Shown: positions 1 to 42,326, counted from the stretch's first letter. The stretch is DNA of 64,000 nucleotides from Trypanosoma brucei (GCA_000002445.1 CH464491.1:288001-352000), one strand, 5' to 3'. Numbers and translations: made by a program. Notes: generated by a model from the sequence alone, not told the origin.

Positions 1-3000
1 AAGCAGCAATGAACGAGCATTCACATGAGCTTGCTAAACTGAAAGCATCCGATAGCCGCAGCTTCCTTGATCCTATGCCAGAAGGAGTGCCGTTGAGTGA
101 GCTTGAATTGGATAAGGATGAGAAGTTCAGCACCATGGAAGAGGAGCGTCGTAAGCTTATTGCTGAGGATCGTGAAGGTAATGCTGCACGCATTGCTGAA
201 TTAGAAGCAGCAATGAACGAGCATTCACATGAGCTTGCTAAACTGAAAGCATCCGATAGCCGCAGCTTCCTTGATCCTATGCCAGAAGGAGTGCCGTTGA
301 GTGAGCTTGAATTGGATAAGGATGAGAAGTTCAGCACCATGGAAGAGGAGCGTCGTAAGCTTATTGCTGAGGATCGTGAAGGTAATGCTGCACGCATTGC
401 TGAATTAGAAGCAGCAATGAACGAGCATTCACATGAGCTTGCTAAACTGAAAGCATCCGATAGCCGCAGCTTCCTTGATCCTATGCCAGAAGGAGTGCCG
501 TTGAGTGAGCTTGAATTGGATAAGGATGAGAAGTTCAGCACCATGGAAGAGGAGCGTCGTAAGCTTATTGCTGAGGATCGTGAAGGTAATGCTGCACGCG
601 TTGCTGAACTAGAAGCTGCAATGAACGAGCATTCACATGAGCTTGCTAAACTGAAAGCATCCGATAGCCGCAGCTTCCTTGATCCTATGCCAGAAGGAGT
701 GCCGTTGAGTGAGCTAGGATTGGATAAGGATGAGAAGTTCAGCACCATGGAAGAGGAGCGTCGTAAGCTTATTGCTGAGGATCGTGAAGGTAATGCTGCA
801 CGCATTGCTGAACTAGAAGCAGCAATGAACGAGTATTCACATGAGCTTGCTAAACTGAAAGCATCCGATAGCCGCAGCTTCCTTGATCCTATGCCAGAAG
901 GAGTGCCGTTGAGTGAGCTAGGATTGGATAAGGATGAGAAGTTCAGCACCATGGAAGAGGAGCGTCGTAAGCTTATTGCTGAGGATCGTGAAGGTAATGC
1001 TGCACGCATTGCTGAATTAGAAGCAGCAATGAACGAGCATTCACATGAGCTTGCTAAACTGAAAGCATCCGATAGCCGCAGCTTCCTTGATCCTATGCCA
1101 GAAGGAGTGCCGTTGAGTGAGCTTGAATTGGATAAGGATGAGAAGTTCAGCACCATGGAAGAGGAGCGTCGTAAGCTTATTGCTGAGGATCGTGAAGGTA
1201 ATGCTGCACGCATTGCTGAATTAGAAGTTGCAATGAACGAGCATTCACATGAGCTTGCTAAACTGAAAGCATCCGATAGCCGCAGCTTCCTTGATCCTAT
1301 GCCAGAAGGAGTGCCGTTGAGTGAGCTTGAATTGGATAAGGATGAGAAGTTCAGCACCATGGAAGAGGAGCGTCGTAAGCTTATTGCTGAGGATCGTGAA
1401 GGTAATGCTGCACGCATTGCTGAACTAGAAGCAGCAATGAACGAGCATTCACATGAGCTTGCTAAACTGAAAGCATCCGATAGCCGCAGCTTCCTTGATC
1501 CTATGCCAGAAGGAGTGCCGTTGAGTGAGCTTGAATTGGATAAGGATGAGAAGTTCAGCACCATGGAAGAGGAGCGTCGTAAGCTTATTGCTGAGGATCG
1601 TGAAGGTAATGCTGCACGCATTGCTGAACTAGAAGCTGCAATGAACGAGCATTCACATGAGCTTGCTAAACTGAAAGCATCCGATAGCCGCAGCTTCCTT
1701 GATCCTATGCCAGAAGGAGTGCCGTTGAGTGAGCTAGGATTGGATAAGGATGAGAAGTTCAGCACCATGGAAGAGGAGCGTCGTAAGCTTATTGCTGAGG
1801 ATCGTGAAGGTAATGCTGCACGCATTGCTGAATTAGAAGCAGCGATGAACGAGTATTCACATGAGCTTGCTAAACTGAAAGCATCCGATAGCCGCAGCTT
1901 CCTTGATCCTATGCCAGAAGGAGTGCCACTAAATGAGCTTGAATTGGACAAGGATGAGAAGTTCAGCACCATGGAAGAGGAGCGTCGTAAGCTTATTGCT
2001 GAGGATCGTGAAGGTAATGCTGCACGCATTGCTGAACTAGAAGCAGCAATGAACGAGTATTCACATGAGCTTGCTAAACTGAAAGCATCCGATAGCCGCA
2101 GCTTCCTTGATCCTATGCCAGAAGGAGTGCCACTAAATGAGCTTGAATTGGACAAGGATGAGAAGTTCAGCACCATGGAAGAGGAGCGTCGTAAGCTTAT
2201 TGCCGAGGATCGTGAAGGTAATGCTGCACGCATTGCTGAACTAGAAGCTGCAATGAACGAGCATTCACATGAGCTTGCTAAACTGAAAGCATCCGATAGC
2301 CGCAGCTTCCTTGATCCTATGCCAGAAGGAGTGCCGTTGAGTGAGCTTGAATTGGACAAGGATGAGAAGTTCAGCACCATGGAAGAGGAGCGTCGTAAGC
2401 TTATTGCTGAGGATCGTGAAGGTAATGCTGCACGCATTGCTGAATTAGAAGCAGCAATGAACGAGCATTCACATGAGCTTGCTAAACTGAAAGCATCCGA
2501 TAGCCGCAGCTTCCTTGATCCTATGCCAGAAGGAGTGCCGCTAAGTGAGCTTGAATTGGATAAGGATGAGAAGTTCAGCACCATGGAAGAGGAGCGTCGT
2601 AAGCTTATTGCTGAGGATCGTGAAGGTAATGCTGCACGCATTGCTGAACTAGAAGCAGCAATGAACGAGCATTCACATGAGCTTGCTAAACTGAAAGCAT
2701 CCGATAGCCGCAGCTTCCTTGATCCTATGCCAGAAGGAGTGCCGTTGAGTGAGCTAGGATTGGATAAGGATGAGAAGTTCAGCACCATGGAAGAGGAGCG
2801 TCGTAAGCTTATTGCTGAGGATCGTGAAGGTAATGCTGCACGCATTGCTGAATTAGAAGCAGCAATGAACGAGCATTCACATGAGCTTGCTAAACTGAAA
2901 GCATCCGATAGCCGCAGCTTCCTTGATCCTATGCCAGAAGGAGTGCCGTTGAGTGAGCTAGGATTGGATAAGGATGAGAAGTTCAGCACCATGGAAGAGG

Positions 3001-6000
3001 AGCGTCGTAAGCTTATTGCTGAGGATCGTGAAGGTAATGCTGCACGCATTGCTGAATTAGAAGCAGCAATGAACGAGCATTCACATGAGCTTGCTAAACT
3101 GAAAGCATCCGATAGCCGCAGCTTCCTTGATCCTATGCCAGAAGGAGTGCCGTTGAGTGAGCTTGAATTGGATAAGGATGAGAAGTTCAGCACCATGGAA
3201 GAGGAGCGTCGTAAGCTTATTGCTGAGGATCGTGAAGGTAATGCTGCACGCATTGCTGAATTAGAAGCAGCAATGAACGAGCATTCACATGAGCTTGCTA
3301 AACTGAAAGCATCCGATAGCCGCAGCTTCCTTGATCCTATGCCAGAAGGAGTGCCGTTGAGTGAGCTTGAATTGGATAAGGATGAGAAGTTCAGCACCAT
3401 GGAAGAGGAGCGTCGTAAGCTTATTGCTGAGGATCGTGAAGGTAATGCTGCACGCATTGCTGAACTAGAAGCAGCAATGAACGAGTATTCACATGAGCTT
3501 GCTAAACTGAAAGCATCCGATAGCCGCAGCTTCCTTGATCCTATGCCAGAAGGAGTGCCGTTGAGTGAGCTTGAATTGGATAAGGATGAGAAGTTCAGCA
3601 CCATGGAAGAGGAGCGTCGTAAGCTTATTGCTGAGGATCGTGAAGGTAATGCTGCACGCATTGCTGAATTAGAAGCAGCAATGAACGAGCATTCACATGA
3701 GCTTGCTAAACTGAAAGCATCCGATAGCCGCAGCTTCCTTGATCCTATGCCAGAAGGAGTGCCGTTGAGTGAGCTTGAATTGGACAAGGATGAGAAGTTC
3801 AGCACCATGGAAGAGGAGCGTCGTAAGCTTATTGCTGAGGATCGTGAAGGTAATGCTGCACGCATTGCTGAATTAGAAGCAGCAATGAACGAGCATTCAC
3901 ATGAGCTTGCTAAACTGAAAGCATCCGATAGCCGCAGCTTCCTTGATCCTATGCCAGAAGGAGTGCCGTTGAGTGAGCTTGAATTGGATAAGGATGAGAA
4001 GTTCAGCACCATGGAAGAGGAGCGTCGTAAGCTTATTGCTGAGGATCGTGAAGGTAATGCTGCACGCATTGCTGAACTAGAAGCAGCAATGAACGAGTAT
4101 TCACATGAGCTTGCTAAACTGAAAGCATCCGATAGCCGCAGCTTCCTTGATCCTATGCCAGAAGGAGTGCCGTTGAGTGAGCTTGAATTGGATAAGGATG
4201 AGAAGTTCAGCACCATGGAAGAGGAGCGTCGTAAGCTTATTGCTGAGGATCGTGAAGGTAATGCTGCACGCATTGCTGAATTAGAAGCAGCAATGAACGA
4301 GCATTCACATGAGCTTGCTAAACTGAAAGCATCCGATAGCCGCAGCTTCCTTGATCCTATGCCAGAAGGAGTGCCGTTGAGTGAGCTTGAATTGGATAAG
4401 GATGAGAAGTTCAGCACCATGGAAGAGGAGCGTCGTAAGCTTATTGCTGAGGATCGTGAAGGTAATGCTGCACGCATTGCTGAACTAGAAGCTGCAATGA
4501 ACGAGCATTCACATGAGCTTGCTAAACTGAAAGCATCCGATAGCCGCAGCTTCCTTGATCCTATGCCAGAAGGAGTGCCGTTGAGTGAGCTTGAATTGGA
4601 CAAGGATGAGAAGTTCAGCACCATGGAAGAGGAGCGTCGTAAGCTTATTGCTGAGGATCGTGAAGGTAATGCTGCACGCATTGCTGAACTAGAAGCTGCA
4701 ATGAACGAGCATTCACATGAGCTTGCTAAACTGAAAGCATCCGATAGCCGCAGCTTCCTTGATCCTATGCCAGAAGGAGTGCCGTTGAGTGAGCTAGGAT
4801 TGGATAAGGATGAGAAGTTCAGCACCATGGAAGAGGAGCGTCGTAAGCTTATTGCTGAGGATCGTGAAGGTAATGCTGCACGCATTGCTGAATTAGAAGC
4901 AGCGATGAACGAGTATTCACATGAGCTTGCTAAACTGAAAGCATCCGATAGCCGCAGCTTCCTTGATCCTATGCCAGAAGGAGTGCCGTTGAGTGAGCTT
5001 GAATTGGACAAGGATGAGAAGTTCAGCACCATGGAAGAGGAGCGTCGTAAGCTTATTGCCGAGGATCGTGAAGGTAATGCTGCACGCATTGCTGAACTAG
5101 AAGCTGCAATGAACGAGCATTCACATGAGCTTGCTAAACTGAAAGCATCCGATAGCCGCAGCTTCCTTGATCCTATGCCAGAAGGAGTGCCGTTGAGTGA
5201 GCTTGGATTGGATAAGGATGAGAAGTTCAGCACCATGGAAGAGGAGCGTCGTAAGCTTATTGCTGAGGATCGTGAAGGTAATGCTGCACGCATTGCTGAA
5301 CTAGAAGCAGCGATGAACGAGCATTCACATGAGCTTGCTAAACTGAAAGCATCCGATAGCCGCAGCTTCCTTGATCCTATGCCAGAAGGAGTGCCACTAA
5401 GTGAGCTAGGATTGGATAAGGATGAGAAGTTCAGCACCATGGAAGAGGAGCGTCGTAAGCTTATTGCTGAGGATCGTGAAGGTAATGCTGCACGCATTGC
5501 TGAACTAGAAGCAGCGATGAACGAGCATTCACATGAGCTTGCTAAACTGAAAGCGTCATATAGCCGCAGCTTCCTTGATCCTATGCCAGAAGGAGTGCCG
5601 TTGAGTGAGCTTGAATTGGATAAGGATGAGAAGTTCAGCACCATGGAAGAGGAGCGTCGTAAGCTTATTGCTGAGGATCGTGAAGGTAATGCAACACGCA
5701 TTGCTGAATTAGAAGCAGCAATGAACGAGCATTCACATGAGCTTGCTAAACTGAAAGCATCCGATAGCCGCAGCTTCCTTGATCCTATGCCAGAAGGAGT
5801 GCCGTTGAGTGAGCTTGAATTGGATAAGGATGAGAAGTTCAGCACCATGGAAGAGGAGCGTCGTAAGCTTATTGCTGAGGATCGTGAAGGTAATGCTGCA
5901 CGCATTGCTGAACTAGAAGCAGCGATGAACGAGCATTCACATGAGCTTGCTAAACTGAAAGCATCCGATAGCCGCAGCTTCCTTGATCCTATGCCAGAAG

Positions 6001-9000
6001 GAGTGCCGTTGAGTGAGCTTGAATTGGATAAGGATGAGAAGTTCAGCACCATGGAAGAGGAGCGTCGTAAGCTTATTGCTGAGGATCGTGAAGGTAATGC
6101 TGCACGCATTGCTGAACTAGAAGCAGCAATGAACGAGCATTCACATGAGCTTGCTAAACTGAAAGCATCCGATAGCCGCAGCTTCCTTGATCCTATGCCA
6201 GAAGGAGTGCCGTTGAGTGAGCTAGGATTGGATAAGGATGAGAAGTTCAGCACCATGGAAGAGGAGCGTCGTAAGCTTATTGCTGAGGATCGTGAAGGTA
6301 ATGCAACACGCATTGCTGAACTAGAAGCAGCAATGAACGAGCATTCACATGAGCTTGCTAAACTGAAAGCGTCATATAGCCGCAGCTTCCTTGATCCTAT
6401 GCCAGAAGGAGTGCCGTTGAGTGAGCTTGAATTGGACAAGGATGAGAAGTTCAGCACCATGGAAGAGGAGCGTCGTAAGCTTATTGCTGAGGATCGTGAA
6501 GGTAATGCAACACGTATCGCTGAATTAGAAGTTGCAATGAACGAGCATTCACATGAGCTTGCTAAACTGAAAGCATCCGATAGCCGCAGCTTCCTTGATC
6601 CTATGCCAGAAGGAGTGCCACTAAGTGAGCTTGAATTGGATAAGGATGAGAAGTTCAGCACCATGGAAGAGGAGCGTCGTAAGCTTATTGCCGATGATCG
6701 TGAAGGTAATGCTGCACGCATTGCTAGACTTGAGGAGAGGATGAACGAACTTTCCCGTGAACTCGCAAGAATGAAGTTGAAGGATCGCAGCTTCCTCGAT
6801 CCTATGCCAGAAGGAGTGCCGTTGAGTGAGCTTGAATTGGATAAGGATGAGAAGTTCAGCACCATGGAAGAGGAGCGTCGTAAGCTTATTGCTGAGGATC
6901 GTGAAGGTAATGCAACACGCATTGCTGAATTAGAAGCAGCAATGAACGAGCATTCACATGAGCTTGCTAAACTGAAAGCATCCGATAGCCGCAGCTTCCT
7001 TGATCCTATGCCAGAAGGAGTGCCACTAAGTGAGCTTGAATTGGATAAGGATGAGAAGTTCAGCACCATGGAAGAGGAGCGTCGTAAGCTTATTGCCGAT
7101 GATCGTGAAGGTAATGCTGCACGCATTGCTAGACTCGAGGAGAGGATGAACGAACTTTCCCGTGAACTCGCAAGAATGAAGTTGAAGGATCGCAGCTTCC
7201 TCGATCCTATGCCAGAAGGAGTGCCACTAAGTGAGCTTGAATTGGATAAGGATGAGAAGTTCAGCACCATGGAAGAGGAGCGTCGTAAGCTTATTGCTGA
7301 GGATCGTGAAGGTAATGCAACACGCATTGCTGAATTAGAAGTTGCAATGAACGAGCATTCACATGAGCTTGCTAAACTGAAAGCATCCGATAGCCGCAGC
7401 TTCCTTGATCCTATGCCAGAAGGAGTGCCGTTGAGTGAGCTTGAATTGGATAAGGATGAGAAGTTCAGCACCATGGAAGAGGAGCGTCGTAAGCTTATTG
7501 CTGAGGATCGTGAAGGTAATGCAACACGCATTGCTGAATTAGAAGTTGCAATGAACGAGCATTCACATGAGCTTGCTAAACTGAAAGCATCCGATAGCCG
7601 CAGCTTCCTTGATCCTATGCCAGAAGGAGTGCCGTTGAGTGAGCTTGAATTGGACAAGGATGAGAAGTTCAGCACCATGGAAGAGGAGCGTCGTAAGCTT
7701 ATTGCTGAGGATCGTGAAGGTAATGCAACACGCATTGCTGAATTAGAAGCAGCAATGAACGAGCATTCACATGAGCTTGCTAAACTGAAAGCATCCGATA
7801 GCCGCAGCTTCCTTGATCCTATGCCAGAAGGAGTGCCGTTGAGTGAGCTTGAATTGGATAAGGATGAGAAGTTCAGCACCATGGAAGAGGAGCGTCGTAA
7901 GCTTATTGCTGAGGATCGTGAAGGTAATGCAACACGCATTGCTGAATTAGAAGCAGCAATGAACGAGCATTCACATGAGCTTGCTAAACTGAAAGCATCC
8001 GATAGCCGCAGCTTCCTTGATCCTATGCCAGAAGGAGTGCCGTTGAGTGAGCTAGGATTGGATAAGGATGAGAAGTTCAGCACCATGGAAGAGGAGCGTC
8101 GTAAGCTTATTGCTGAGGATCGTGAAGGTAATGCAACACGCATTGCTGAACTAGAAGCAGCAATGAACGAGCATTCACATGAGCTTGCTAAACTGAAAGC
8201 ATCCGATAGCCGCAGCTTCCTTGATCCTATGCCAGAAGGAGTGCCGTTGAGTGAGCTTGAATTGGATAAGGATGAGAAGTTCAGCACCATGGAAGAGGAG
8301 CGTCGTAAGCTTATTGCTGAGGATCGTGAAGGTAATGCTGCACGCATTGCTGAACTAGAAGCTGCAATGAACGAGCATTCACATGAGCTTGCTAAACTGA
8401 AAGCATCCGATAGCCGCAGCTTCCTTGATCCTATGCCAGAAGGAGTGCCGTTGAGTGAGCTTGAATTGGATAAGGATGAGAAGTTCAGCACCATGGAAGA
8501 GGAGCGTCGTAAGCTTATTGCTGAGGATCGTGAAGGTAATGCTGCACGCATTGCTGAATTAGAAGCAGCAATGAAGGAGAATTNNNNNNNNNNNNNNNNN
8601 NNNNNNNNNNNNNNNNNNNNNNNNNNNNNNNNNNNNNNNNNNNNNNNNNNNNNNNNNNNNNNNNNNNNNNNNNNNNNNNNNNNTAAGCTTATTGCTGAGG
8701 ATCGTGAAGGTAATGCTGCACGCATTGCTGAATTAGAAGCAGCAATGAACGAGCATTCACATGAGCTTGCTAAACTGAAAGCATCCGATAGCCGCAGCTT
8801 CCTTGATCCTATGCCAGAAGGAGTGCCACTAAGTGAGCTTGAATTGGACAAGGATGAGAAGTTCAGCACCATGGAAGAGGAGCGTCGTAAGCTTATTGCT
8901 GAGGATCGTGAAGGTAATGCAACACGCATTGCTGAATTAGAAGCAGCAATGAACGAGCATTCACATGAGCTTGCTAAACTGAAAGCATCCGATAGCCGCA

Positions 9001-12000
9001 GCTTCCTTGATCCTATGCCAGAAGGAGTGCCGTTGAGTGAGCTTGAATTGGATAAGGATGAGAAGTTCAGCACCATGGAAGAGGAGCGTCGTAAGCTTAT
9101 TGCTGAGGATCGTGAAGGTAATGCTGCACGCATTGCTGAATTAGAAGTTGCAATGAACGAGCATTCACATGAGCTTGCTAAACTGAAAGCATCCGATAGC
9201 CGCAGCTTCCTTGATCCTATGCCAGAAGGAGTGCCGTTGAGTGAGCTTGAATTGGATAAGGATGAGAAGTTCAGCACCATGGAAGAGGAGCGCCGTAAGC
9301 TTATTGCTGAGGATCGTGAAGGTAATGCAACACGCATTGCTGAATTAGAAGTTGCAATGAACGAGCATTCACATGAGCTTGCTAAACTGAAAGCATCCGA
9401 TAGCCGCAGCTTCCTTGATCCTATGCCAGAAGGAGTGCCACTAAGTGAGCTAGGATTGGACAAGGATGAGAAGTTCAGCACCATGGAAGAGGAGCGCCGT
9501 AAGCTCATTGCTGAGGATCGTGAAGGTAATGCAACACGCATCGCTGAATTAGAAGTTGCAATGAACGAGTATTCACATGAGCTTGCTAAACTGAAAGCAT
9601 CCGATAGCCGCAGCTTCCTTGATCCTATGCCAGAAGGAGTGCCACTAAGTGAGCTTGAATTGGACAAGGATGAGAAGTTCAGCACCATGGAAGAGGAGCG
9701 TCGTAAGCTCATTGCTGAGGATCGTGAAGGTAATGCAACACGCATTTGTCGCTTGGAAAGGAAAATGGGGAGGCGTGTTGATAAGCTGGCTAAACTGAAA
9801 GCGTCATATAGCCGCAGCTTCCTTGATCCTATGCCAGAAGGAGTGCCACTAAATGAGCTTGAATTGGATAAGGATGAGAAGTTCAGCACCATGGAAGAGG
9901 AGCGTCGTAAGCTCATTGCTGAGGATCGTGAAGGTAATGCAACACGCATTGCTGAATTAGAAGTTGCAATGAACGAGCATTCACATGAGCTTGCTAAACT
10001 GAAAGCATCCGATAGCCGCAGCTTCCTTGATCCTATGCCAGAAGGAGTGCCACTAAGTGAGCTTGAATTGGATAAGGATGAGAAGTTCAGCACCATGGAA
10101 GAGGAGCGTCGTAAGCTTATTGCTGAGGATCGTGAAGGTAATGCAACACGCATTGCTGAATTAGAAGAGTGTATGAGTGCTCGAGTTCGGAATTTGGCTA
10201 TTTGTAAGTCTACTTTAGGTGGAGTGATTGTTGATGAGAGAATTGGTCTTGTTCCTTTGTATTTGTTACCGTTGGGGGAGGATTCGGTTTTGAGTTCGTT
10301 GACTTCTAAATTGGAATCTATGCGATGTGGTGGGTGTTTACCCGATAGTGTTGCTGTGCGTGATATCCAAGAACAAATTATATGTCGAGTAGAGAAATTG
10401 GCAGAAGTGTATTTAGAACATGAACTTGATTTTCTGGAAACTGTTGACGGAATTTCTGTTTCTCAGATCGCACTTTCTGATGACAAGGTGTTTTGTGAAA
10501 TGCAGCGGTCGTTGCGCCAGTTGAGAAAAAGTCCGGTAAGAAATGCAGAAGCCATACGGGATATTGAGTATGCGATGAATAATATCGTTCGTGAACTGTC
10601 GTCAAAACTATTACTGGAGGATTGTAGTTACCTGAATCAGTGTCCTCACGGCGTACCTCTTGCTGACTTACCGCTGGATAATCGGTTATTTCGCGAGATT
10701 GAATTGAAGAGAAGAAGATTAAAAGAGGATGACCCGTTAAAAAATGCGACGAGGATTAGAGAGTTGGAGATGAAATTGAATGATCATGCCGAGCGTTTGG
10801 CCGCGCTTATGTTAAGTGAGGAACGTGCTTTTCTTGAGCCATGCTCGCACGGTCTTCCCCTTAGTCGCCTTCAGTTGGGAGAGGATTCTTCCTTTCTTGC
10901 AATGGAAAGGGAAAGAAGGAAGTTATTGCGTGAAGGGGGTAAAGACAAAAACCGTATCAGGTATCTCGAAGAATGCATGAGGGAACATGTCAGCAATGTC
11001 GCCCTCTCTCTAATTTCCTGGCAGGATGTTCAATTTCATGAAGCTAACCATTCTGTAGCGGAGATGTGGCCGCGAATCGGTGAGTTGTACCCTGAAGGAA
11101 TCCGAAACTCTGTGTTTCCGGAAATAACACAGCCGGGCGATACTTCATCTGCGCCTGGTGAACTTGGCTATTTAGCACCTTTCATTGCCGCTCTCAGTCA
11201 ACACCCGCCTCTAATTCATCGGCTTCTGGAAACGAAAACACATCCCGTTAATGGTCCATATTCTTTCATCTTTTTTGATCCGAACAGCAACCCTGTTCGT
11301 GTTGACATTGATGACCGTGTGCCAGTGGATGCGAAGTGTGAGCCCAAGTTTACACGCGTGCCACACCGGTCTTGGTACCCGCTGCTGCTGGAGAAGGCAT
11401 ATGCGAAGTTTGTTGGTGGGTACGCAAAGCTCGACCAGTGCACACCACACGAAACCCTCCATGACCTAACGGGCCGTCCAGTGACACATATCCCTTTTGA
11501 TGAGAAGCGAGCAGATGGAATCAAAATTGGGGACTTCCGATCTGTGAAATTCTGGAAGGGGATTAAAAGGGATCTTGCGGCTGGAGATGTTATTATGGCA
11601 ATGACGAACGGTAGTGTTCCCGACGGCCTTCACTCTCAATGTAGTTACGCTCTCCTTAGTGTAATCGAAACTGTGCATGAATCGAATGATGTCTCTGACA
11701 TCGTGATCAAATTACACAACTGCTACTACGATAGCCCGACATACGACGGCCCACTGTGTAACGATGATGATAACTGGACCGATGGTTTGAAGAGACTTTG
11801 CCATTATAATCCTGAGGAGGATGCACTTTACATACCTGTTCCTGTGTTTCTGCGTAACTTCTCGAGCATGCAGCGCTGTCACATAAACTGTGGCGACCGT
11901 CTGACTGCGCCTGGTGAGTGGACTGGGGTAAGCTGTGGAGGAAACCCGAAGTTCACAACTTTCCGGAACAACCCCATCTATCTTGTGGAAAACAAAACCT

Positions 12001-12914
12001 CCCGTCCCGTTACCATTCTTGCTGAGCTGCGGCATCAAGCCCCTGTGTTTTTTGATGCCGATGGGGTAAATCACTATCATCAGTCTGGGCTGGCGCTCTT
12101 ACAGCAGCATCATGTTTCTGAAATTATTACGTGGCTCCTTACTAGTACGACGCACCGCTTTTTGCAAAAAGGTATTTTAATGGATACACGCGAGATTTGC
12201 TCAAGGATGGAAATACCTCCGAATACCACGTGCTATCTCGTCCCATATACGTTGAAGCGAGGTAGCTACGGCAAGTTCAATGTGTCGCTGTATCCTGCAT
12301 CTTCTGACATTACTTTGGTCCCTTTGGCTGCTTTGTGTAATTCGCACGTGGTAATTAACGTTGATGTTTTGCTGAAACCGGGGAGCCGGGAGGGGAGAAG
12401 AGTCGACTTTTCGGTGCACGAAGCTTGTGATGTACACTTGCTGCTGCATCAGAATAAAATTACTGACCCTGCTAGTGTCAAAAGGGGTAACCTCCTTGCG
12501 GAGGACGAGGTTTCTATGTCTGTTAATGACGAGCGGATGTCAGTCCTGGCGACCACTCGTGACACCTCCAATGCGCGTGAGCAGTCCTTGGCTTTGGAGC
12601 TTCCAACCGCTGGTCGGTATTCCGTTTTTATTGAGTGCCGAAGCCGACTCAGAACTGGTGAATGTCCTTGTACTTTGTCTATATATTCGCCGAGCCGCGC
12701 CAAAACCAGGTTGGCTCCCCTTCCGCCTAGTGGGACGCAATCGGTACTTCCAGCAATTGCACCTCGTCAGCCTCCCCGGCAGCCCGCACTTTATGGGAGA
12801 AGGTTGGATCAGCCTCCTCTCAGTGCAGGCACGGTGAGGGCCGCCGCTGCTACGCTTCCTGTAGGCTTAGTTCCAGCACCTCCAAAGTCCGGCACGACAC
12901 CGCAGCGTAGATGA
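1..12914 (+). CDS. ClpGM6: Giant calpain-like cytoskeletal protein with 68-aa GM6-type tandem repeats (5' partial; reading phase begins at nt 3, first in-window Met codon at 9). At least 50 near-identical 68-aa units, then 4 degenerate units (10173-10990) and a C-terminal calpain-like module (10990-12914).
   Basis: Single 4301-codon ORF in the supplied track. 204-bp period read directly (MNEH Met codons at 9, 213, 417 ... 8571, then 8745 ... 9969). The C-terminal part has calpain domain II/III-like sequence (WYPLLLEKAYAKF, KLHNCYYDSPTYDGPL, GGNPKFTTFRNNPIYLV). A 68-aa repeat plus calpain-like ends matches the published description of T. brucei ClpGM6/GM6 antigen. The symbol is assigned from memory, not from a search. 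Confidence 0.8.
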   Translation, partial: AAMNEHSHELAKLKASDSRSFLDPMPEGVPLSELELDKDEKFSTMEEERRKLIAEDREGNAARIAELEAAMNEHSHELAKLKASDSRSFLDPMPEGVPLSELELDKDEKFSTMEEERRKLIAEDREGNAARIAELEAAMNEHSHELAKLKASDSRSFLDPMPEGVPLSELELDKDEKFSTMEEERRKLIAEDREGNAARVAELEAAMNEHSHELAKLKASDSRSFLDPMPEGVPLSELGLDKDEKFSTMEEERRKLIAEDREGNAARIAELEAAMNEYSHELAKLKASDSRSFLDPMPEGVPLSELGLDKDEKFSTMEEERRKLIAEDREGNAARIAELEAAMNEHSHELAKLKASDSRSFLDPMPEGVPLSELELDKDEKFSTMEEERRKLIAEDREGNAARIAELEVAMNEHSHELAKLKASDSRSFLDPMPEGVPLSELELDKDEKFSTMEEERRKLIAEDREGNAARIAELEAAMNEHSHELAKLKASDSRSFLDPMPEGVPLSELELDKDEKFSTMEEERRKLIAEDREGNAARIAELEAAMNEHSHELAKLKASDSRSFLDPMPEGVPLSELGLDKDEKFSTMEEERRKLIAEDREGNAARIAELEAAMNEYSHELAKLKASDSRSFLDPMPEGVPLNELELDKDEKFSTMEEERRKLIAEDREGNAARIAELEAAMNEYSHELAKLKASDSRSFLDPMPEGVPLNELELDKDEKFSTMEEERRKLIAEDREGNAARIAELEAAMNEHSHELAKLKASDSRSFLDPMPEGVPLSELELDKDEKFSTMEEERRKLIAEDREGNAARIAELEAAMNEHSHELAKLKASDSRSFLDPMPEGVPLSELELDKDEKFSTMEEERRKLIAEDREGNAARIAELEAAMNEHSHELAKLKASDSRSFLDPMPEGVPLSELGLDKDEKFSTMEEERRKLIAEDREGNAARIAELEAAMNEHSHELAKLKASDSRSFLDPMPEGVPLSELGLDKDEKFSTMEEERRKLIAEDREGNAARIAELEAAMNEHSHELAKLKASDSRSFLDPMPEGVPLSELELDKDEKFSTMEEERRKLIAEDREGNAARIAELEAAMNEHSHELAKLKASDSRSFLDPMPEGVPLSELELDKDEKFSTMEEERRKLIAEDREGNAARIAELEAAMNEYSHELAKLKASDSRSFLDPMPEGVPLSELELDKDEKFSTMEEERRKLIAEDREGNAARIAELEAAMNEHSHELAKLKASDSRSFLDPMPEGVPLSELELDKDEKFSTMEEERRKLIAEDREGNAARIAELEAAMNEHSHELAKLKASDSRSFLDPMPEGVPLSELELDKDEKFSTMEEERRKLIAEDREGNAARIAELEAAMNEYSHELAKLKASDSRSFLDPMPEGVPLSELELDKDEKFSTMEEERRKLIAEDREGNAARIAELEAAMNEHSHELAKLKASDSRSFLDPMPEGVPLSELELDKDEKFSTMEEERRKLIAEDREGNAARIAELEAAMNEHSHELAKLKASDSRSFLDPMPEGVPLSELELDKDEKFSTMEEERRKLIAEDREGNAARIAELEAAMNEHSHELAKLKASDSRSFLDPMPEGVPLSELGLDKDEKFSTMEEERRKLIAEDREGNAARIAELEAAMNEYSHELAKLKASDSRSFLDPMPEGVPLSELELDKDEKFSTMEEERRKLIAEDREGNAARIAELEAAMNEHSHELAKLKASDSRSFLDPMPEGVPLSELGLDKDEKFSTMEEERRKLIAEDREGNAARIAELEAAMNEHSHELAKLKASDSRSFLDPMPEGVPLSELGLDKDEKFSTMEEERRKLIAEDREGNAARIAELEAAMNEHSHELAKLKASYSRSFLDPMPEGVPLSELELDKDEKFSTMEEERRKLIAEDREGNATRIAELEAAMNEHSHELAKLKASDSRSFLDPMPEGVPLSELELDKDEKFSTMEEERRKLIAEDREGNAARIAELEAAMNEHSHELAKLKASDSRSFLDPMPEGVPLSELELDKDEKFSTMEEERRKLIAEDREGNAARIAELEAAMNEHSHELAKLKASDSRSFLDPMPEGVPLSELGLDKDEKFSTMEEERRKLIAEDREGNATRIAELEAAMNEHSHELAKLKASYSRSFLDPMPEGVPLSELELDKDEKFSTMEEERRKLIAEDREGNATRIAELEVAMNEHSHELAKLKASDSRSFLDPMPEGVPLSELELDKDEKFSTMEEERRKLIADDREGNAARIARLEERMNELSRELARMKLKDRSFLDPMPEGVPLSELELDKDEKFSTMEEERRKLIAEDREGNATRIAELEAAMNEHSHELAKLKASDSRSFLDPMPEGVPLSELELDKDEKFSTMEEERRKLIADDREGNAARIARLEERMNELSRELARMKLKDRSFLDPMPEGVPLSELELDKDEKFSTMEEERRKLIAEDREGNATRIAELEVAMNEHSHELAKLKASDSRSFLDPMPEGVPLSELELDKDEKFSTMEEERRKLIAEDREGNATRIAELEVAMNEHSHELAKLKASDSRSFLDPMPEGVPLSELELDKDEKFSTMEEERRKLIAEDREGNATRIAELEAAMNEHSHELAKLKASDSRSFLDPMPEGVPLSELELDKDEKFSTMEEERRKLIAEDREGNATRIAELEAAMNEHSHELAKLKASDSRSFLDPMPEGVPLSELGLDKDEKFSTMEEERRKLIAEDREGNATRIAELEAAMNEHSHELAKLKASDSRSFLDPMPEGVPLSELELDKDEKFSTMEEERRKLIAEDREGNAARIAELEAAMNEHSHELAKLKASDSRSFLDPMPEGVPLSELELDKDEKFSTMEEERRKLIAEDREGNAARIAELEAAMKENXXXXXXXXXXXXXXXXXXXXXXXXXXXXXXXXXXKLIAEDREGNAARIAELEAAMNEHSHELAKLKASDSRSFLDPMPEGVPLSELELDKDEKFSTMEEERRKLIAEDREGNATRIAELEAAMNEHSHELAKLKASDSRSFLDPMPEGVPLSELELDKDEKFSTMEEERRKLIAEDREGNAARIAELEVAMNEHSHELAKLKASDSRSFLDPMPEGVPLSELELDKDEKFSTMEEERRKLIAEDREGNATRIAELEVAMNEHSHELAKLKASDSRSFLDPMPEGVPLSELGLDKDEKFSTMEEERRKLIAEDREGNATRIAELEVAMNEYSHELAKLKASDSRSFLDPMPEGVPLSELELDKDEKFSTMEEERRKLIAEDREGNATRICRLERKMGRRVDKLAKLKASYSRSFLDPMPEGVPLNELELDKDEKFSTMEEERRKLIAEDREGNATRIAELEVAMNEHSHELAKLKASDSRSFLDPMPEGVPLSELELDKDEKFSTMEEERRKLIAEDREGNATRIAELEECMSARVRNLAICKSTLGGVIVDERIGLVPLYLLPLGEDSVLSSLTSKLESMRCGGCLPDSVAVRDIQEQIICRVEKLAEVYLEHELDFLETVDGISVSQIALSDDKVFCEMQRSLRQLRKSPVRNAEAIRDIEYAMNNIVRELSSKLLLEDCSYLNQCPHGVPLADLPLDNRLFREIELKRRRLKEDDPLKNATRIRELEMKLNDHAERLAALMLSEERAFLEPCSHGLPLSRLQLGEDSSFLAMERERRKLLREGGKDKNRIRYLEECMREHVSNVALSLISWQDVQFHEANHSVAEMWPRIGELYPEGIRNSVFPEITQPGDTSSAPGELGYLAPFIAALSQHPPLIHRLLETKTHPVNGPYSFIFFDPNSNPVRVDIDDRVPVDAKCEPKFTRVPHRSWYPLLLEKAYAKFVGGYAKLDQCTPHETLHDLTGRPVTHIPFDEKRADGIKIGDFRSVKFWKGIKRDLAAGDVIMAMTNGSVPDGLHSQCSYALLSVIETVHESNDVSDIVIKLHNCYYDSPTYDGPLCNDDDNWTDGLKRLCHYNPEEDALYIPVPVFLRNFSSMQRCHINCGDRLTAPGEWTGVSCGGNPKFTTFRNNPIYLVENKTSRPVTILAELRHQAPVFFDADGVNHYHQSGLALLQQHHVSEIITWLLTSTTHRFLQKGILMDTREICSRMEIPPNTTCYLVPYTLKRGSYGKFNVSLYPASSDITLVPLAALCNSHVVINVDVLLKPGSREGRRVDFSVHEACDVHLLLHQNKITDPASVKRGNLLAEDEVSMSVNDERMSVLATTRDTSNAREQSLALELPTAGRYSVFIECRSRLRTGECPCTLSIYSPSRAKTRLAPLPPSGTQSVLPAIAPRQPPRQPALYGRRLDQPPLSAGTVRAAAATLPVGLVPAPPKSGTTPQRR
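9..10172 (+). repeat. In-frame tandem array of a 204-bp unit (two 201-bp variant units), about 50 copies, interrupted by a 100-N gap
   Basis: Unit boundaries phase exactly at 204-bp steps from 9 to 8571. After the gap, phase restarts at 8745. Units are more than 97% identical even at synonymous sites. Confidence 0.95.
8584..8683. other. Assembly gap (100 N) inside the repeat array. The true copy number is unknown.
   Basis: Run of n. Repeat phase is discontinuous across it. The last unit before the gap reads MKEN instead of MNEH, which suggests a low-quality contig end. Confidence 0.95.
11021..11875 (+). repeat. Dispersed near-identical coding block shared by the three calpain-like genes. Copy A of three, with copies at 32005-32859 and in part at 36318-36960.
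   Basis: Direct nucleotide comparison, e.g. caggatgttcaatttcatgaagctaacc at 11021 and at 32005. catcccgttaatggtccatattctttc at 11233, 32217 and 36318. Identical antisense ORFs in the track (11216..11524, 32199..32591, 36250..36690). Confidence 0.9.
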
Positions 12915-15462: not shown

Positions 15463-18400
15463 ATGAATTACCAAGCAATTACCGAAATTCCAGATAGCAA
15501 TACGATATTCCATGACACCATTTTTATGAGAAACAACAAACACGTCTCGGAGCAATGGATTCGTATTGGCGAATTGTACCCCAATGGTGCGAAGGAATCA
15601 TTGCTCCCGGAGACGTTTGCACGCGAACAGTTCGGACAAGGAAGTCACTATGAGTGCTTCATGCTTTCTGCCCTCGCCACTTTAGTAAAATTCCCCGACA
15701 TCATTCGGAACTGCTTCGTGTCGAGGAATGTGCGGCGTGACGGGAGGTACACTTTTCAGTTCTTTCGTGACAAGGAATGGGTGAAGGTTGAAATTGATGA
15801 CTCTGTTATGCTTGAGGATGATGAAGTTTTGTTCATCCGATCACCCACTAGTCATTGGTGGCCGCTACTGTTTGAGAAGGCTTATGCGAAATTCTACACC
15901 AGCTACGACAATTTGGAGGGTTGTACCTTACAGGAGGCGTACCATGACTTAACTGGCAACCCCGTGCTCAACATCCCCATGGACGCGAGGCTTGCCAAGG
16001 CTGCAGGTGTGGATGTGACTGGAGGTCAGTATTGGCTTGACCTCGCACAGAAGCTGCAATCCGGCCAGTTTGTTGGTTCGCTGCTGACGAGGGAAACGGA
16101 CCTTGAGTCGATGGGCTTGCAGAGTGAGCAACAATACGGGATACTAGAGATTTTTTCGCTAACTGGGACATCATCTGTAAGCGACATTGTGATTCACCTA
16201 TACAACCCATTCGAGGACGAGGAATTCACGTACAAAGGCCCGCTGAACAGTAAGGACACGGAGTGGACCCCCAAACTCCGTGAAAAGTATAACGTGGATG
16301 ATACGCACTCCATATTTCTTCCGCTACACGTTGCCCTGAAGATCGTAAATTCGGTGCAACTTTGCTACATATCCCCTATTGATGGTGACGCGACGTATTT
16401 TGATGATGAGTGGAAGGGTGAAACTGCGGGAGGGAACCCCACGAGTGTAACATGGCGCAAGAACCCCCTATACTGCGTCAGGAACGCTGGGATCAACCCC
16501 GTGGAACTGGTTGTCGTGATTAAGCAGAAGGATCAACGACGTTACATGTCTTCTGAGGAGCGAACCATGTACCTTCAATGTGGCATTGTTGTTGTTCAGA
16601 GTACCACAGTCACACAAATACCGACATATTTTGTAACAGGGAACAATCACAAAGCAATACACAAGAGTTTGTTCCTAAACTCTCGTGAAGTGTCCAGTTT
16701 CGTTCGGATACCACCTAATTCCTTGTGCTACCTTGTACCTTCTTGCATGAAGAAGGGAGCGGAGAGTGCATTTACGCTCGCACTGTACCGAGTGAAACTT
16801 CAAGACTACAGCAATATTCTGATTAAGAAACTTGAGGTCCCCTCTATGGATTGGGGACATTGTGCCATTGGAAAGGTTACGTTGGAAACAAAAGTGAAGG
16901 AACGGGTTGATTTTTTTGTTGACTGCCCTACTGACATTCACATTTTGATGCATCAAGAAAAACCGTTTGTGAACAAAGTTGGTGGTGATATTACAACTCG
17001 GGATTACGTTGGTGTCTACCTTTATGATGACACGGACCGTAAGATTGGAGGTGTGCACGCTGCGACGAATTTCAGGGAAACAAGTGTCTTGCATCGCCTT
17101 CCTCGTAGTGGTCGTTATGCTATTTCAATTACGTGTCCCCGGGCAAGTGGTGAAGTACCCATTGCTCTCACAATTGTTGGTTCTCCTGATGCTAATGTTC
17201 GTATTGTTGAGGCTCCTGATGATGCCTCCATGTTTGATGATGAGGATGATATTGCAGAGGGTGATGAGGATGCTACTGTTTCTAATCCCATTGACTACAT
17301 TCCTGTTGCTGGTGGAGGGCAGGTGTTCACTGAGGTACCCGATAGTACGGTCCCATTTGAAGATAAACGTTTCATGGTTGATAATAAGATTATGACGAAT
17401 GAACCGTGGATCCACATTGGTGACCTTTATCCTGAGGGAAAGACGCGCTCACTTTTGCCGGAGCGTCTGAGTCGTGAGCAGTTTGAGCAGGGTGAACACT
17501 TCGAGTGCTGTTGTCTGACCGCTTTTGCAGCGCTGGTGGAGCACCACCCCAACGTAATTCGTGACGCGTTTGTGACGAAGGCTGTACGACGTGACGGACG
17601 GTACACGTTCCGGTTCCACCGCTACGGTCAGTGGGTGAAGGTGGAGATTGATGATCGTATTCCCCTTCTTGGTGGGAAAACTTTATTCTGTCGATCATCT
17701 GATGGTTATTGGTGGCCACTACTACTAGAGAAGGCGTATGCTAAGTTCTACACACTATACCAAAATATTGAGGGATGTACGCTGCGGGAACTGTTTTACG
17801 ACCTAACAGGGCTTCCTGTGCTTAGCATTCCGATGGAGTTGAAACTCGCGAAGGCTGTACTGTGTGATGTTGATGATGTGAGTTTTTGGGTTGAGCTCAG
17901 TGAGGGTCTGAAGGATTGTGCGTGTGCTGCCGTTGCACGCCCCGGTTTCGATGACACCCTTGGTTTGTCCAATGGGCAAGAGTACGCTGTCCTTGATGTG
18001 GTATCGTTAACGGATGGTGAGGCCTCTTCCATATCTGATCTTGTTGTAAAACTTCATAATCCGTTTCTGGAGACTGAGTACAAAGGCCCTATGAATGCAA
18101 GCGATGCTGCGTGGTCGTCTGAGCTGCGTACCCGTCTATGTCCGGAGCGACGGGATACTATCTACATTCCCGTGGAAGTTTTCTGCAATGCATTTCTCAC
18201 TGTGGAGAAAGTTATGGTGCGTGGTCTTATTGTTCCCGGGTGGCAATTCAACAGTGAATGGGGTGAGGGCACGAACGGTGGCAATCCAACACTTGTGACG
18301 TGGCGTGAGAACCCCATTTACGTTGTGCAGAACACTGCGGATACCCCGTTACAGATTATTGCAATGATTGGGCAACCTGATCAGCGTCGCGTGCTACACC

Positions 18401-21400
18401 TTCTCCCCGAGCAAGAGGTAAACTATGTTCAATGTGGGTTGGTTCTTTCTCAGTGTACATGTAGCAATCCTGTACCAACATATTTGGTGACGAGTAACAA
18501 CCATCGTGTTGTGCACAAGGGTCTGTTCGTGAACTTTCGTGAGTCGGCGAATATTGTTACCATTCCAGCTAACTCTATGTCGTACCTAATTCCAAGCGCG
18601 ATGTTTCGTGACAAAACGAAGTTTCTTCTCTCATACTGGTTTCAAAAATTGCCTGACATGAAATTTATCAAAATCAGTCGTATCAATGTGAGTGTTGCGC
18701 GGTCACTACCTGCAATTGAGCACCTTGAGCTGCATAACCATGAAAAGAAACGCGTGGATTTTCTGGTTGATGTTCCCACTGATATTCACATTCTGCTTCG
18801 TCAGGAGAAACCTTGTGTGACGGTCCGTACGCACGATGCTATGGCTGATGACTTCCTAGGGATATATCTGTACAACGAGGATGAAAAGCGTATTGATGGT
18901 GTGACCGCTGCGACGAACTACAGGGAAATGGGGCTTGTTCACCGGCTTGCCACTGCGGGGAGATACGCTCTGTCGATCACGTGTCCTCGGGGAACCGGTG
19001 TTGTGCCGTGCCGTGTGGAGATCGTTGGCGTGGAAGATGCGAAGGTGCGTATCACCGACCCACCTGAGGATGCTGGTAATCTGTGTGAGGTTGACCTTCG
19101 CTTTCTGGGTTCTGAAGCTGAGGGTGTGCCTCTTGAAGACCTTCCGCTCGATAGTGACGCCGATTTGCAAGCTATATTGGAAGAACTGAGACGCCTGCAC
19201 GGAGACATTGATGCGAATGCTGAGCCAATTGCAAAACATGAGAGGATGATGAGTGACCGAGTTCATAAGATGGCGAGGCAGCTTCTTGCTAAGGATCGTT
19301 CGAAGTACTTACCAGGATACGATCTTCAAACGGTTAATTCCATACTTGACGCGGAGCCACATTTTGTCGTTTTAGAGCGCGATCGGTACCACCTAAAGGG
19401 TGATCCCAGGAATGCCACGAAGGTTCGGAATGTAGAGAGAAGCCTTCTTACTCTCGCTAATGAAATTCTGGAAAAACACGATGACCCTGACTTATCTTTC
19501 CTTGGAGCCGAGGTGGAAGGAATTCCCACCCTGGATCTCACTCTGATGAGCGACTCTTCATTTTCTGAGATGGCACGTGAGCGCATGCAATTAAAGCGGG
19601 ATCCCATTGCTAATGCGAGTCGTTTGGCTGAGGTTGAAGATAGTATGGTGGCACGTGCGAATGCTATTGCCAAGGAGATGCATTTGAGAGAGCGGCGATA
19701 TCTGAACCCTGAGCCTGAGGGTGTCCCCCTTGAGTTGCTTCCTTTAAACGAGGACGAAGTTGTGAGTGAGAAGGAGGACCGCCTCCGTGCGCTGAATCGT
19801 AAGGAGCGAAAAGACGAGAAACTGTTACGGAGTCTTGAGGACGTGATAGCGGACCGTGTACACGAGATCGCGAGGGAGCTGAAGCTGAGTGAACGTGATC
19901 TGTTCCTTGATCCCACTCCAGGAGGTTTCCCTGTAGCGCAGCTTCCGCTGGACGAAGACGATGTGTTTCATTCACTCGAAGTGGAGCGACTGCAACTGCG
20001 ACTGCGTCAGGATTCCCTTGCGAATAAGACATCAGAGATCAAAGAACTTGAAAGTTGGTTGAACCGTCGAGCGTGTGAACTTGCGCGTGTGAAGGTAGAG
20101 GAGGGTCGAGCGTTTCTAGACCCTGAACCTCTGGGGTTCCCACTTACCGACCTTAACCTTGACGGAGATAGTGAGTTTGTCAAGCTGGAATCGGAACTTC
20201 GTAAGTTGCGTTGGGAGCCGCGTGTGAACAGCACTGCTATGAGGACTGTGGAGGAGGATATTGCTCGCGTTGTATACCGCATAGCACTGAGGAAAACGTG
20301 TCTCGATCGTGACTATCTTGACGCGGAATATGAGGGTCGACCTGTGCAGGGGTTGCCTCTGAATGATAGTAAGGAGGTGCTTGCGATGGAGACGAGGCGC
20401 CGGGTGTTAATTAACGCGAAGGCTGACCGTGACGAAATCGGTGTTGCAGAGAATATGATACGTGATGCTGTGCGTGAGATCGCTCGCGCTCTGAATGTGG
20501 GCGAGCGCTTGGACTACTTGGAGCCATGCCCAAGAGGTGTCCCTGTAGAAGACCTCCCCCTTGACATGGATACGGAATTCCACGAGCTTGAGGTGCATCG
20601 GCAACGTCTCAAGTGTGATGCGAAGAAACAGGACACAGTAATAATGGATGTGGAGCGTGCACTGAATGATCGTGCGGAAGCCCTTGCGAGGGAGCACTTG
20701 TCGAGTGACCGTGGTTACTTGGACCCAGCATCTGTTGGTGTGCCGCTTCGTTTGCTACCACTTGATAGCGATAGTGTGTTCCAGGAGCTTGAAATTAAAC
20801 GTGCGCTACTGAAGAAGAACCCTCAGAGGAACGGACGTGCCATCTCGGCTTTGGAGGGTGGCCTGAACGAGCGTGCACACGTTCTTGCTACGGAAATGAA
20901 GCACGCGGAGCGATCGAAATTTATGGACCCTAACCCTGGTGGTATTGCCATTGAGGATGTTCCTATTGATAACGACGAGGTTTTTTGTGATCTTGAAATT
21001 CGTCGGTTTGGTTTGTGCGAGGACCCGCATGCTAATATAGCAGCGATACGAAATCTTGAAGATGCGATGAATGAGAGGGTGATCGAACTGGCTGATAAGA
21101 TGCGTTGTGAGATCCGCATGTTTCTGGACCCGATGCCATTGGGGGTGTCCTTAGATGAGCTGCCCCTTGACAATAACGAGAGCTTTGTTGCGAAAGAAGC
21201 TGAACTGCACAAGCTTCGGAAGGACCTGCGGGCAAATGGTGCCGATGTTGCTTTGCTGAAGTCTGACTTGAACGAGTTAGCCAAGCAGATGGCGGCGGAG
21301 ATGATTTCTAAAGATCGTGCTTTTCTCTTCCCTGAGCCTGAGGGTCGTCTACTGGAGGAATTGCCTCTAGATAGCGATAAGGAGTTTCGTTCTCTTGAAA

Positions 21401-32859: not shown

Positions 32860-32959
32860 NNNNNNNNNNNNNNNNNNNNNNNNNNNNNNNNNNNNNNNNN
32901 NNNNNNNNNNNNNNNNNNNNNNNNNNNNNNNNNNNNNNNNNNNNNNNNNNNNNNNNNNN
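32860..32959. other. Assembly gap (100 N)
   Basis: Run of n. The flanking sequence has an ambiguous base (n at 33011) and a 1-nt indel relative to its duplicate. Confidence 0.95.
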
Positions 32960-40167: not shown

Positions 40168-41166
40168 ATGCAAGGGCAAAACCAAGCAGCAGTGGATGGC
40201 ACTATGGCCTACACCTTTCAGCACCCACCACAGGGGTTCTTACACGCACAATACAGGGATCCTCACAGCAGTGTAGGCCGTAAGCAATATGCCAATATTA
40301 TGCATGACCGTCGTGTGTATCGCGGGAATACGTACGCCGCCGTGCCCATGTCAACATATGCGCGAGACGAGGAAGAGCGAGTGGTTCGCGAGGCAAACAG
40401 ACGTCGCAAGGAACTTCAGCAGCGGGCCACTTCTATAAAGCGTCGTAAAGAACTTGACGCAGCCCAACGGAAACTTGCGACTCCGCCCCCCGTTGTTGGA
40501 CGGCAGCACATAGAAGTACAAACGGAGGAATTCCTCGAGGAACTGAAGGATGAGGTGGAAGTGGTTCAGCAGGAAACACAAACTGATCCCCTTCTCGACC
40601 GCCCTGCGACACCACCGTATGTTCCTGTAAAGTCTGGTCGTGATGCGGAGTCGCAAATTAATGAAGGAGATTTGTTTCACTTCGACGACGCCGTTGACCC
40701 GATTCTCGATGTTATGGTTGGAAAGACACTTGAACAAGCGATGTTGGAGGTATTGCAGGAGGAAGAACTGGAACTTCTGCGGCAGCAGCAACTGGAGTTT
40801 GAGCAACGACGCAAGGAGGAGTTACTGGAGGCACAGCGACTTGAAGCTCGTGAGAAACGCCTCTTTGAGGAGAAGGAGCGGCGGAAAAAGCAGGAAATCG
40901 AGCGCATCAAGCGCGAGAAGGCTACACGTGAGAAGCTCCAGGCCCGTCAGTTTGCCAAGATGTATTTAATGAACCTCGAAAACCGTGTCTTTGCAAGGCT
41001 TCAGGATGAGGGCTGGTTTCGTGATCGCGTATTACACGAGGTGGAGTTTGACTTCTTCCCGTGGCTCATGGATCAGGTCGCGGTGGAACTTGAAAAGAAG
41101 CAGCGGGCGCGTGTGTTGGTAGACGATCTCATTCGCCAAGTAGTTGCCATACAGTTGAATAGCTGA
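40168..41166 (+). CDS. RSP3: Radial spoke protein 3 homolog (axonemal)
   Basis: 332-aa ORF. ANIMHDRRVYRGNTYA near the N-terminus, and the segment TQTDPLLDRPATPPYVPVKSGRDAESQINEGDLFHFDDAVDPILDVMVGKTLEQAMLEV followed by an E/R/K-rich coiled coil, match my recollection of the conserved RSP3 core. My recollection that trypanosome RSP3 lies next to calpain-like genes also supports this. Confidence 0.65.
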   Translation: MQGQNQAAVDGTMAYTFQHPPQGFLHAQYRDPHSSVGRKQYANIMHDRRVYRGNTYAAVPMSTYARDEEERVVREANRRRKELQQRATSIKRRKELDAAQRKLATPPPVVGRQHIEVQTEEFLEELKDEVEVVQQETQTDPLLDRPATPPYVPVKSGRDAESQINEGDLFHFDDAVDPILDVMVGKTLEQAMLEVLQEEELELLRQQQLEFEQRRKEELLEAQRLEAREKRLFEEKERRKKQEIERIKREKATREKLQARQFAKMYLMNLENRVFARLQDEGWFRDRVLHEVEFDFFPWLMDQVAVELEKKQRARVLVDDLIRQVVAIQLNS

Positions 41167-41185
41167 GATATAAATAAATAAATAA

Positions 41186-41220
<35 letters not shown>
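41167..41220. repeat. (AAAT)n then (TA)n microsatellite that starts directly after the RSP3 stop codon
   Basis: gatataaataaataaataaataaatatatatatatatatatatatatatata read directly. Confidence 0.9.

Positions 41221-42292: not shown

Positions 42293-42295
<3 letters not shown>

Positions 42296-42322
<27 letters not shown>
42296..42322. repeat. (TA)n microsatellite
   Basis: atatatatatatatatatatatata in the intergenic region. Confidence 0.9.

Positions 42323-42326
<4 letters not shown>

Follow-up and report, generated by a model that had tools for sequence, protein, structure and literature searches.

The window analysed here, a stretch of 64,000 nucleotides from chromosome 11 of Trypanosoma brucei brucei TREU927 (GCA_000002445.1, CH464491.1:288001–352000), begins inside a head-to-tail array of 204-bp coding units that on sequence identity is the already described central repeat core of ClpGM6 (Tb927.11.1090), the GM6 diagnostic antigen and a flagellum attachment zone (FAZ) protein. 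The array in TREU927, which is built of DUF7623 units and belongs to a protein of more than 660 kDa, has very probably been shaped by concerted evolution together with purifying selection on the protein, and the outcome is a mosaic of variant states.

The identity of the gene is secure because the sequence matches are exact. The translation of positions 8685–12911 is identical to XP_828203.1 (Tb11.47.0036), and the translation of the array before its internal assembly gap is the exact tail of the 5795-residue XP_828202.1 (Tb11.57.0008), with the array of the window beginning at residue 2938 of that protein. These two records are annotated fragments of ClpGM6 that formerly carried separate gene ids, and Hayes et al. 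(2014, PMC4121973) have described the two fragments as the ends of one gene, with the break falling inside a repeat. Since the sequences on either side of the gap match the fragments that they describe, the gap at 8584–8683 corresponds to the known break in ClpGM6. Counted by the anchor FLDPMPEGVPL, XP_828202.1 holds 61 GM6 units, 19 of which precede the start of the window; with the seven units after the gap the TREU927 assembly contains 68 complete units, and the window carries the 3′ two-thirds of the repeat core. The first-pass annotation, made from the sequence alone, had correctly placed the gap within the array and the 5′ end beyond the window. The total of 68 fits the 60 GM6 copies reported for T. 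b. brucei (Pillay et al. 2013, PMC3808341), the Southern blots indicating at least 55 repeats of 90–100% identity (PMC4121973), and the mass of more than 660 kDa at which ClpGM6 is listed, under the FAZ flagellum domain (PMC4827413).

Further matches agree with this assignment. A 'calpain-like protein' of T. b. gambiense DAL972 shares 99% identity with the C-terminal region (10173–12911), and the published anti-ClpGM6 peptides KASDSRSFLDPMPE and ERRKLIAEDREGN are present verbatim in the unit consensus. The GM6 antigen of T. brucei is reportedly also the subject of Muller et al. 1992, named beside Hayes et al. as a source. Three GM6 units match the Pfam family DUF7623 (PF24610) with a score of 191.3 bits against a cut-off of 27 (E = 2.5e-57). 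Calpain-like domains flank the repeat core on both sides, with a Peptidase_C2 domain C-terminal to it in the window and two N-terminal modules outside, the latter seen in XP_828202.1 and in the DAL972 locus. The suggestion in the first-pass annotation that the units are those of the GM6 antigen is thereby confirmed, by the peptides as well as by the exact matches to the ClpGM6 fragments, and serodiagnosis with GM6 repeats, mainly of animal trypanosomosis, is documented (PMC3808341, PMC4363025).

Tandem Repeats Finder (TRF) reports 204-bp repeats at positions 1–8583 (42.1 copies, 96% matches, score 15880) and in a second stretch at 8684–10167 (7.3 copies, 93% matches, score 2602). Units were anchored on a conserved 32-mer, which gave 49 anchors, and were parsed in the ATG phase adopted by the first-pass annotation; the anchors are spaced 204 bp apart throughout, except for two intervals of 201 bp and the jump across the gap. 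Positions 1–10172 hold 49 complete in-frame units, 42 before the gap and seven after it, besides three partial ones, where 50 or more had been counted earlier. Forty-seven of the units are 204 bp (68 residues) and two are 201 bp (67 residues) long. One open frame runs through the array to the stop codon at 12912–12914. The TRF run and the unit parse thus bear out a tandem coding array in one frame, and the translated consensus is identical to the 68-residue unit first proposed. Across the array the other frames on both strands contain no open reading frame (ORF) of at least 60 residues, and a hidden gene in another frame or on the other strand was rejected on this ground.

The uniformity of the units is graded, at 98% in the centre of the array and 93% towards its 3′ end. 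Pairwise nucleotide identity among the 49 units has a mean of 95.6%, a median of 97.1% and a minimum of 82.6%, and falls into two regimes, with a mean of 98.1% for the first 27 units (9–5516) and of 93.5% for the last 22. Identity to the consensus reaches at least 97% in 37 of the 49 units, which falls short of the earlier claim of more than 97% in at least 50. There are 35 distinct DNA sequences and 19 distinct protein sequences among the units, and 61 columns are variable. By the Nei-Gojobori method, the proportions of silent (pS) and replacement (pN) differences are 0.120 and 0.023 over all units (pN/pS 0.19) and 0.068 and 0.008 over 39 core units (pN/pS 0.12), meaning that silent sites vary five to eight times as much as replacement sites; third codon positions make up 11 of the 20 variable columns of the core units. 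The near-identity ascribed to silent sites was overstated in this respect, and the pN/pS values show that, besides homogenisation, the protein has been under purifying selection. All of the variants listed in the first-pass annotation (H/Y, E/G, S/N, A/V, AAR/ATR and ccgttg/ccacta) are present, and D/Y (ASYS) and E/D were found in addition. The variable sites had been described as binary, but several columns (42, 43, 200, 201 and 204) hold three or four states. Two helix variants span the unit boundary, marked here by a hyphen: ...ARIARLEER-MNELSRELARMKLKD..., which gives the 67-residue units, and ...ICRLERK-MGRRVDK.... The former is the variant second helix of the pair of 405-bp blocks at 6537–7346, and a third occurrence lies in units 11–12 of XP_828202.1, upstream of the window.

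Several comparisons support exchange between units, and not selection on the protein alone, as the cause of their likeness, in agreement with the first-pass annotation. The giant calpain-like paralogue that lies downstream provides a control, since 78 DUF7623 repeats of like period could be parsed from it and these share on average 30% amino-acid and 42% nucleotide identity. The fold therefore tolerates extensive change, and selection on the protein alone cannot explain 95.6% identity of the DNA. Similarity among the ClpGM6 units reaches silent sites beyond the need of the protein, with a pS of 0.07–0.12 as against 42% nucleotide identity in the paralogue. Units were also compared at the amino-acid level among T. 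brucei, T. congolense, T. vivax, T. theileri and Leishmania tarentolae. Each of these five lineages has its own uniform unit, with 95–99% identity within species and 39–63% between species, and the latter figure is similar to the identity of the unique C-terminal flank to that of T. brucei (66% in T. congolense and 59% in T. vivax). The edges of the array are less uniform: the last units fall to 88–95% identity and are followed by degenerate repeats, and degenerate repeats are also found 5′ of the uniform core, where the ATR form returns.

The variants are also mosaic. Among 22 columns in which the minor state occurs in at least three units, 138 of the 231 column pairs show all four allele combinations. 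A further signal comes from comparison with DAL972, the array of which is collapsed in its assembly. The last four units are anchored by unique flank and are marked by the ICRLERK-MGRRVDK variant and by the ...LEEC with which the final unit of the array ends. Between TREU927 and DAL972 these four units carry 26 differences over 816 sites, as against 10 over 2742 sites (a divergence of 0.36%) in the unique coding sequence next to them, a rate nine times higher in the units (Fisher P = 4e-10). Each of the 26 falls on a position that is variable within the array, and its alternative state is present in other units.

We propose that unequal exchange between sister chromatids or homologues, together with short-tract gene conversion of misaligned repeats, would spread and shuffle variants along the array, acting most strongly in its centre and most weakly at its edges, while purifying selection on the protein would clear most replacement changes. 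The expected outcome would be a mosaic drawn from a limited set of common variant states, with no readable duplication history.

The variant map is indeed a mosaic and not tree-like, as follows from the number of column pairs with all four combinations, and the order of expansion is not readable from it. The first-pass annotation had noted a switch from the AAR to the ATR form near position 5690 and had taken the blocks as a record of the order of expansion. The switch was recovered, with AAR in all 27 of the first units and ATR in 15 of the 22 from 5517 on, but its interpretation fails on the mosaic pairs, on the lack of any link between separation and identity among the first 27 units (Mantel r = 0.005, P = 0.49), and on the return of ATR at the 5′ edge outside the window, in units 1, 3, 5, 12 and 13 of XP_828202.1. 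The distribution of the ATR form and of the 67-residue variant is one of edge against centre and not a one-way gradient. The weak distance signal over the whole array (r = −0.14, P = 0.02) reflects only the contrast of the two regimes. In the first 27 units H/Y, E/G, S/N and silent changes are scattered without spatial order. Columns 84–87, 150, 177/178 and 200 are the only ones that cluster spatially; clustering of all variants was rejected, with H/Y, E/G and columns 105 and 193 distributed much as chance would place them. Recent block copies are limited to the 405-bp pair and to exact matches of 611 bp (3174/3786) and 493 bp (107/2963), and as these are the only two exact matches of at least 420 bp, higher-order periodicity was rejected as the main organiser.

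A number of points weigh against concerted evolution as the explanation. The genome is diploid and its assembly, from the Sanger era, is gapped; the order, number and internal composition of the units depend on it, and part of the mosaicism could have arisen when a consensus was called across collapsed repeats or two alleles. The DAL972 array (chromosome 11, L001 9021–10954) is clearly collapsed, with about 9 GM6 units around a 100-N gap at 9679–9778 and with ClpGM6 annotated as two fragments of 1870 and 1231 residues, and the between-subspecies conversion signal could therefore be partly artefactual. The pS of 0.07–0.12 is not small, which implies that turnover is not fast; exchange between units is deduced here from sequence comparison, and the repeat structure discussed below is a prediction. 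Pressed further, the first of these points would make the number, order and chimeric make-up of the units largely a product of collapse, expansion or mixed reads or alleles, which we consider unlikely but deserving of some weight. The 13 nucleotides that precede the gap in the array carry two mismatches, the second N gap of the window is flanked by 99.5–100% duplicates of other segments, the DAL972 assembly retains only about nine units, and Hayes et al. (PMC4121973) state that repeats have probably been collapsed in the annotation. Nevertheless, the Southern estimate of at least 55 repeats and the very high protein mass (PMC4121973, PMC4827413) agree with the 68 assembled units, and the 35 distinct unit sequences are real landmarks for read assembly. 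The array itself is beyond doubt and the uncertainty is limited to its fine map: its existence, period, consensus and approximate size are secure, whereas the unit-by-unit order is not.

The likeness of the units might instead have come from recent copying in a single amplification burst, without continuing exchange. The few long exact multi-unit matches and the adjacent 405-bp blocks, which represent a recent block duplication, would suit such a history, and lineage-specific expansion has been discussed for the Trypanosoma cruzi homologue (Galetovic et al., PMC3214072). We nonetheless find a burst improbable. With a uniform unit in five lineages, independent recent bursts would be needed everywhere, and the unit consensus diverges between species about as much as the unique flank does. 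The variants are mosaic, and the anchored terminal units appear, with the reservation that the DAL972 array is collapsed, to have exchanged array-wide states after the split of TREU927 from DAL972. The silent diversity is moreover far above the 0.36% divergence of the subspecies, and the copies are therefore not very young. There is in our estimation hardly any chance that constraint on the nucleotide sequence or the mRNA (through codon use, RNA structure or regulator binding), and not DNA exchange, holds the units identical. Among transcripts, that of ClpGM6 fell the furthest after ALBA3/4 knock-down (cited in PMC4827413), a sign of strong post-transcriptional regulation, yet silent sites are the most variable class in the array, the repeats of the paralogue, which belongs to the same transcription unit, can differ from one another by 58% in nucleotide sequence, and the array is free of any overlapping frame of at least 60 residues. 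Concerted evolution under purifying selection remains the reading that we prefer, and the features of the array and of the remainder of ClpGM6 in the window are compiled in Table 1. The 13-nucleotide fragment that abuts the gap is probably a low-quality contig end.

Table 1. Features of ClpGM6 in the window, with positions counted from its first nucleotide.
Feature	Position	Strand	Basis
Partial GM6 unit, last 8 nucleotides; start upstream of window	1–8	+	Comparison with XP_828202.1
27 most uniform GM6 units, 204 bp / 68 residues, all NAARIA	9–5516	+	Unit parse, identity
15 more complete units; NATRIA frequent, identity lower	5517–8570	+	Unit parse
Two tandem copies of 405-bp two-unit block (204 + 201 bp)	6537–7346	+	Unit parse
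Units of 201 bp / 67 residues	6741–6941, 7146–7346	+	Unit parse
First 13 nucleotides of a unit (ATGAAGGAGAATT), abutting gap; two bases off consensus	8571–8583	+	
100-N assembly gap, boundary of XP_828202.1 and XP_828203.1 fragments	8584–8683	.	
Partial unit after gap, last 61 nucleotides	8684–8744	+	
Seven terminal units, divergence rising (96.6% down to 88% identity to consensus)	8745–10172	+	
ICRLERK-MGRRVDK helix variant	9561–9968	+	Within terminal units
Four degenerate DUF7623 repeats, after uniform array in same protein	10233–11003	+	Pfam, hidden Markov model (HMM) parse (C-terminal residues 21–277)
C-terminal calpain-like Peptidase_C2 domain	11157–11882	+	Pfam, E = 9e-21
ClpGM6 stop codon	12912–12914	+	

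The structure of three consecutive GM6 units was modelled with AlphaFold2 from an alignment of 75 natural three-repeat segments from the window, giving a predicted local distance difference test score (pLDDT) of 95.3 and a predicted TM-score (pTM) of 0.76. Each unit is predicted to consist of an extended strap of about 20 residues (FLDPMPEGVPLSELELDKDEKF), in which the model places three short turns, and, after it, two helices, the first of 17 and the second of 26 residues, joined by a 4-residue turn. Relative to the ATG phase the structural unit is offset, so that the variants at the junction of parsed units are variants of the long helix. A Foldseek search of the PDB with the three-unit model gave no match better than E = 2, and a phmmer search of PDB sequences nothing better than E = 0.07. 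In the C-terminal calpain-like domain, alignment with human calpain 9 shows GELG--YLA in place of GELGDCWLL and SQCSYA in place of KGHAYS; of the triad only the Asn is retained, the catalytic Cys being deleted and the His changed to Cys. Judged by these residues the domain is without a working catalytic triad, as published. In the whole protein at least 68 units are preceded by two N-terminal calpain-like modules and followed by the single C-terminal calpain-like domain. A more speculative proposal drawn from the model, to which we attach little probability, is that the strap and helical hairpin of DUF7623 form a fold without a solved relative and that the units stack as a long rod, whose length would follow from the unit number and be important to FAZ architecture. 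If this were true, unequal exchange in the uniform core would lead to strains or alleles that differ heritably in the length of ClpGM6, and would act as a genetic dial on attachment-zone geometry and cell shape beside the known dependence on expression level.

All of the large ORFs of the window lie on the plus strand, as in a kinetoplastid polycistronic unit. The paralogous giant calpain-like gene or genes immediately downstream of ClpGM6 occupy positions 15463–37993 (+), and XP_828204.1 corresponds to exactly 15463–32859. A homologue search started from the N-terminal region of the DAL972 protein led to this paralogue cluster and not to the ClpGM6 fragment of TREU927. A second 100-N gap, at 32860–32959, is flanked by duplicates from the same region: 32222–32859 is 100% identical to 36321–36958, and 32960–33605 is 99.5% identical to 26631–27277. 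The ORF that spans this gap probably represents two genes, or else a misjoined or redundant contig. Positions 11019–11876 of ClpGM6, which span the final degenerate repeat and run into the calpain-like domain, share 95.1% identity over 865 bp with positions 32002–32859 of the paralogue, immediately before the second gap. The two genes are far more divergent outside this patch, which suggests gene conversion between neighbours. Elsewhere in the paralogue, at 24349–26151 (residues about 2829–3556), the repeat HMM scores alternate between strong and weak over some ten repeats, which hints at an older two-repeat super-unit of about 134 residues. An intergenic region of low GC content (35.5%) at 38001–40000 is followed by three plus-strand genes at 40168–41166, 42954–46373 and 46968–49133, which encode respectively a radial spoke protein 3 homologue, a Vps18/Pep3-like protein and a product with a weak match to the Plus-3 domain, below the curated Pfam cut-off. 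Simple repeats in this part of the window are (ATAT)n at 41168–41218, (TA)n at 42293–42324 and T-rich runs at 42409–42462.

The shape of the trypanosome cell depends to a large degree on ClpGM6, and the repeat serves in practice as an antigen for serodiagnosis. Unit variants are mostly one or two of 68 residues apart, and from their sequences an effect on polyclonal assays that use one to four repeats appears unlikely. Because the array, its approximate copy number and the near-identity of its units are already in print, as is the likely homogenising mechanism in the case of the T. cruzi homologue, the finding itself adds little, and the locus is known biology of low novelty. What is added here are the unit statistics, the paralogue control, the subspecies comparison and the structure prediction, and with them the graded uniformity, the visible purifying selection, and a mosaic map that is not readable as a history of expansion. 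There is a gap in the published reference map, which should not be relied on at the level of single units.

Among known systems, ClpGM6/GM6 of T. brucei is the same gene, and the near-perfect 68-residue repeats, the epitopes and the calpain-like domain without its triad are all as described, with nothing that differs. The T. cruzi antigen H49/JL7/FRA (Galetovic et al. 2011, PMC3214072) resembles ClpGM6 in having calpain-like modules on either side of a uniform 68-residue DUF7623 core, in its location at the attachment zone and in its use as a serodiagnostic antigen, and differs in its repeat sequence, which is lineage-specific; unequal crossing-over or gene conversion has already been proposed for its uniform repeats (PMC3214072). 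No uniform unit could be parsed from the partial T. cruzi marinkellei protein. GM6 also has syntenic orthologues in T. congolense (TcIL3000.11.1030) and T. vivax (TvY486_1101010), described by Pillay et al. (2013, PMC3808341). As parsed here, each has a uniform repeat of its own, with consensus units 63% and 54% identical, respectively, to that of T. brucei. Their assembled copies number 9 and 11 as against 60 in T. brucei (PMC3808341), and the T. vivax unit as parsed has 65 residues in place of 68. The downstream paralogue shares the domain plan of ClpGM6, with two N-terminal calpain modules, an N-terminal region that is about 70% identical, and some 80 DUF7623 repeats with a period of about 67 residues, but its repeats are non-uniform (30% amino-acid and 42% nucleotide identity) and are not detected by TRF. 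Concerted evolution of coding tandem arrays is known more generally, from other trypanosomatid repetitive antigens, as it is from rDNA. The ClpGM6 array resembles these systems in its greater similarity within the array than between species, its divergent edges and its mosaic sharing of variant states, and differs from them in a turnover slow enough to leave 7–12% silent-site diversity between units.

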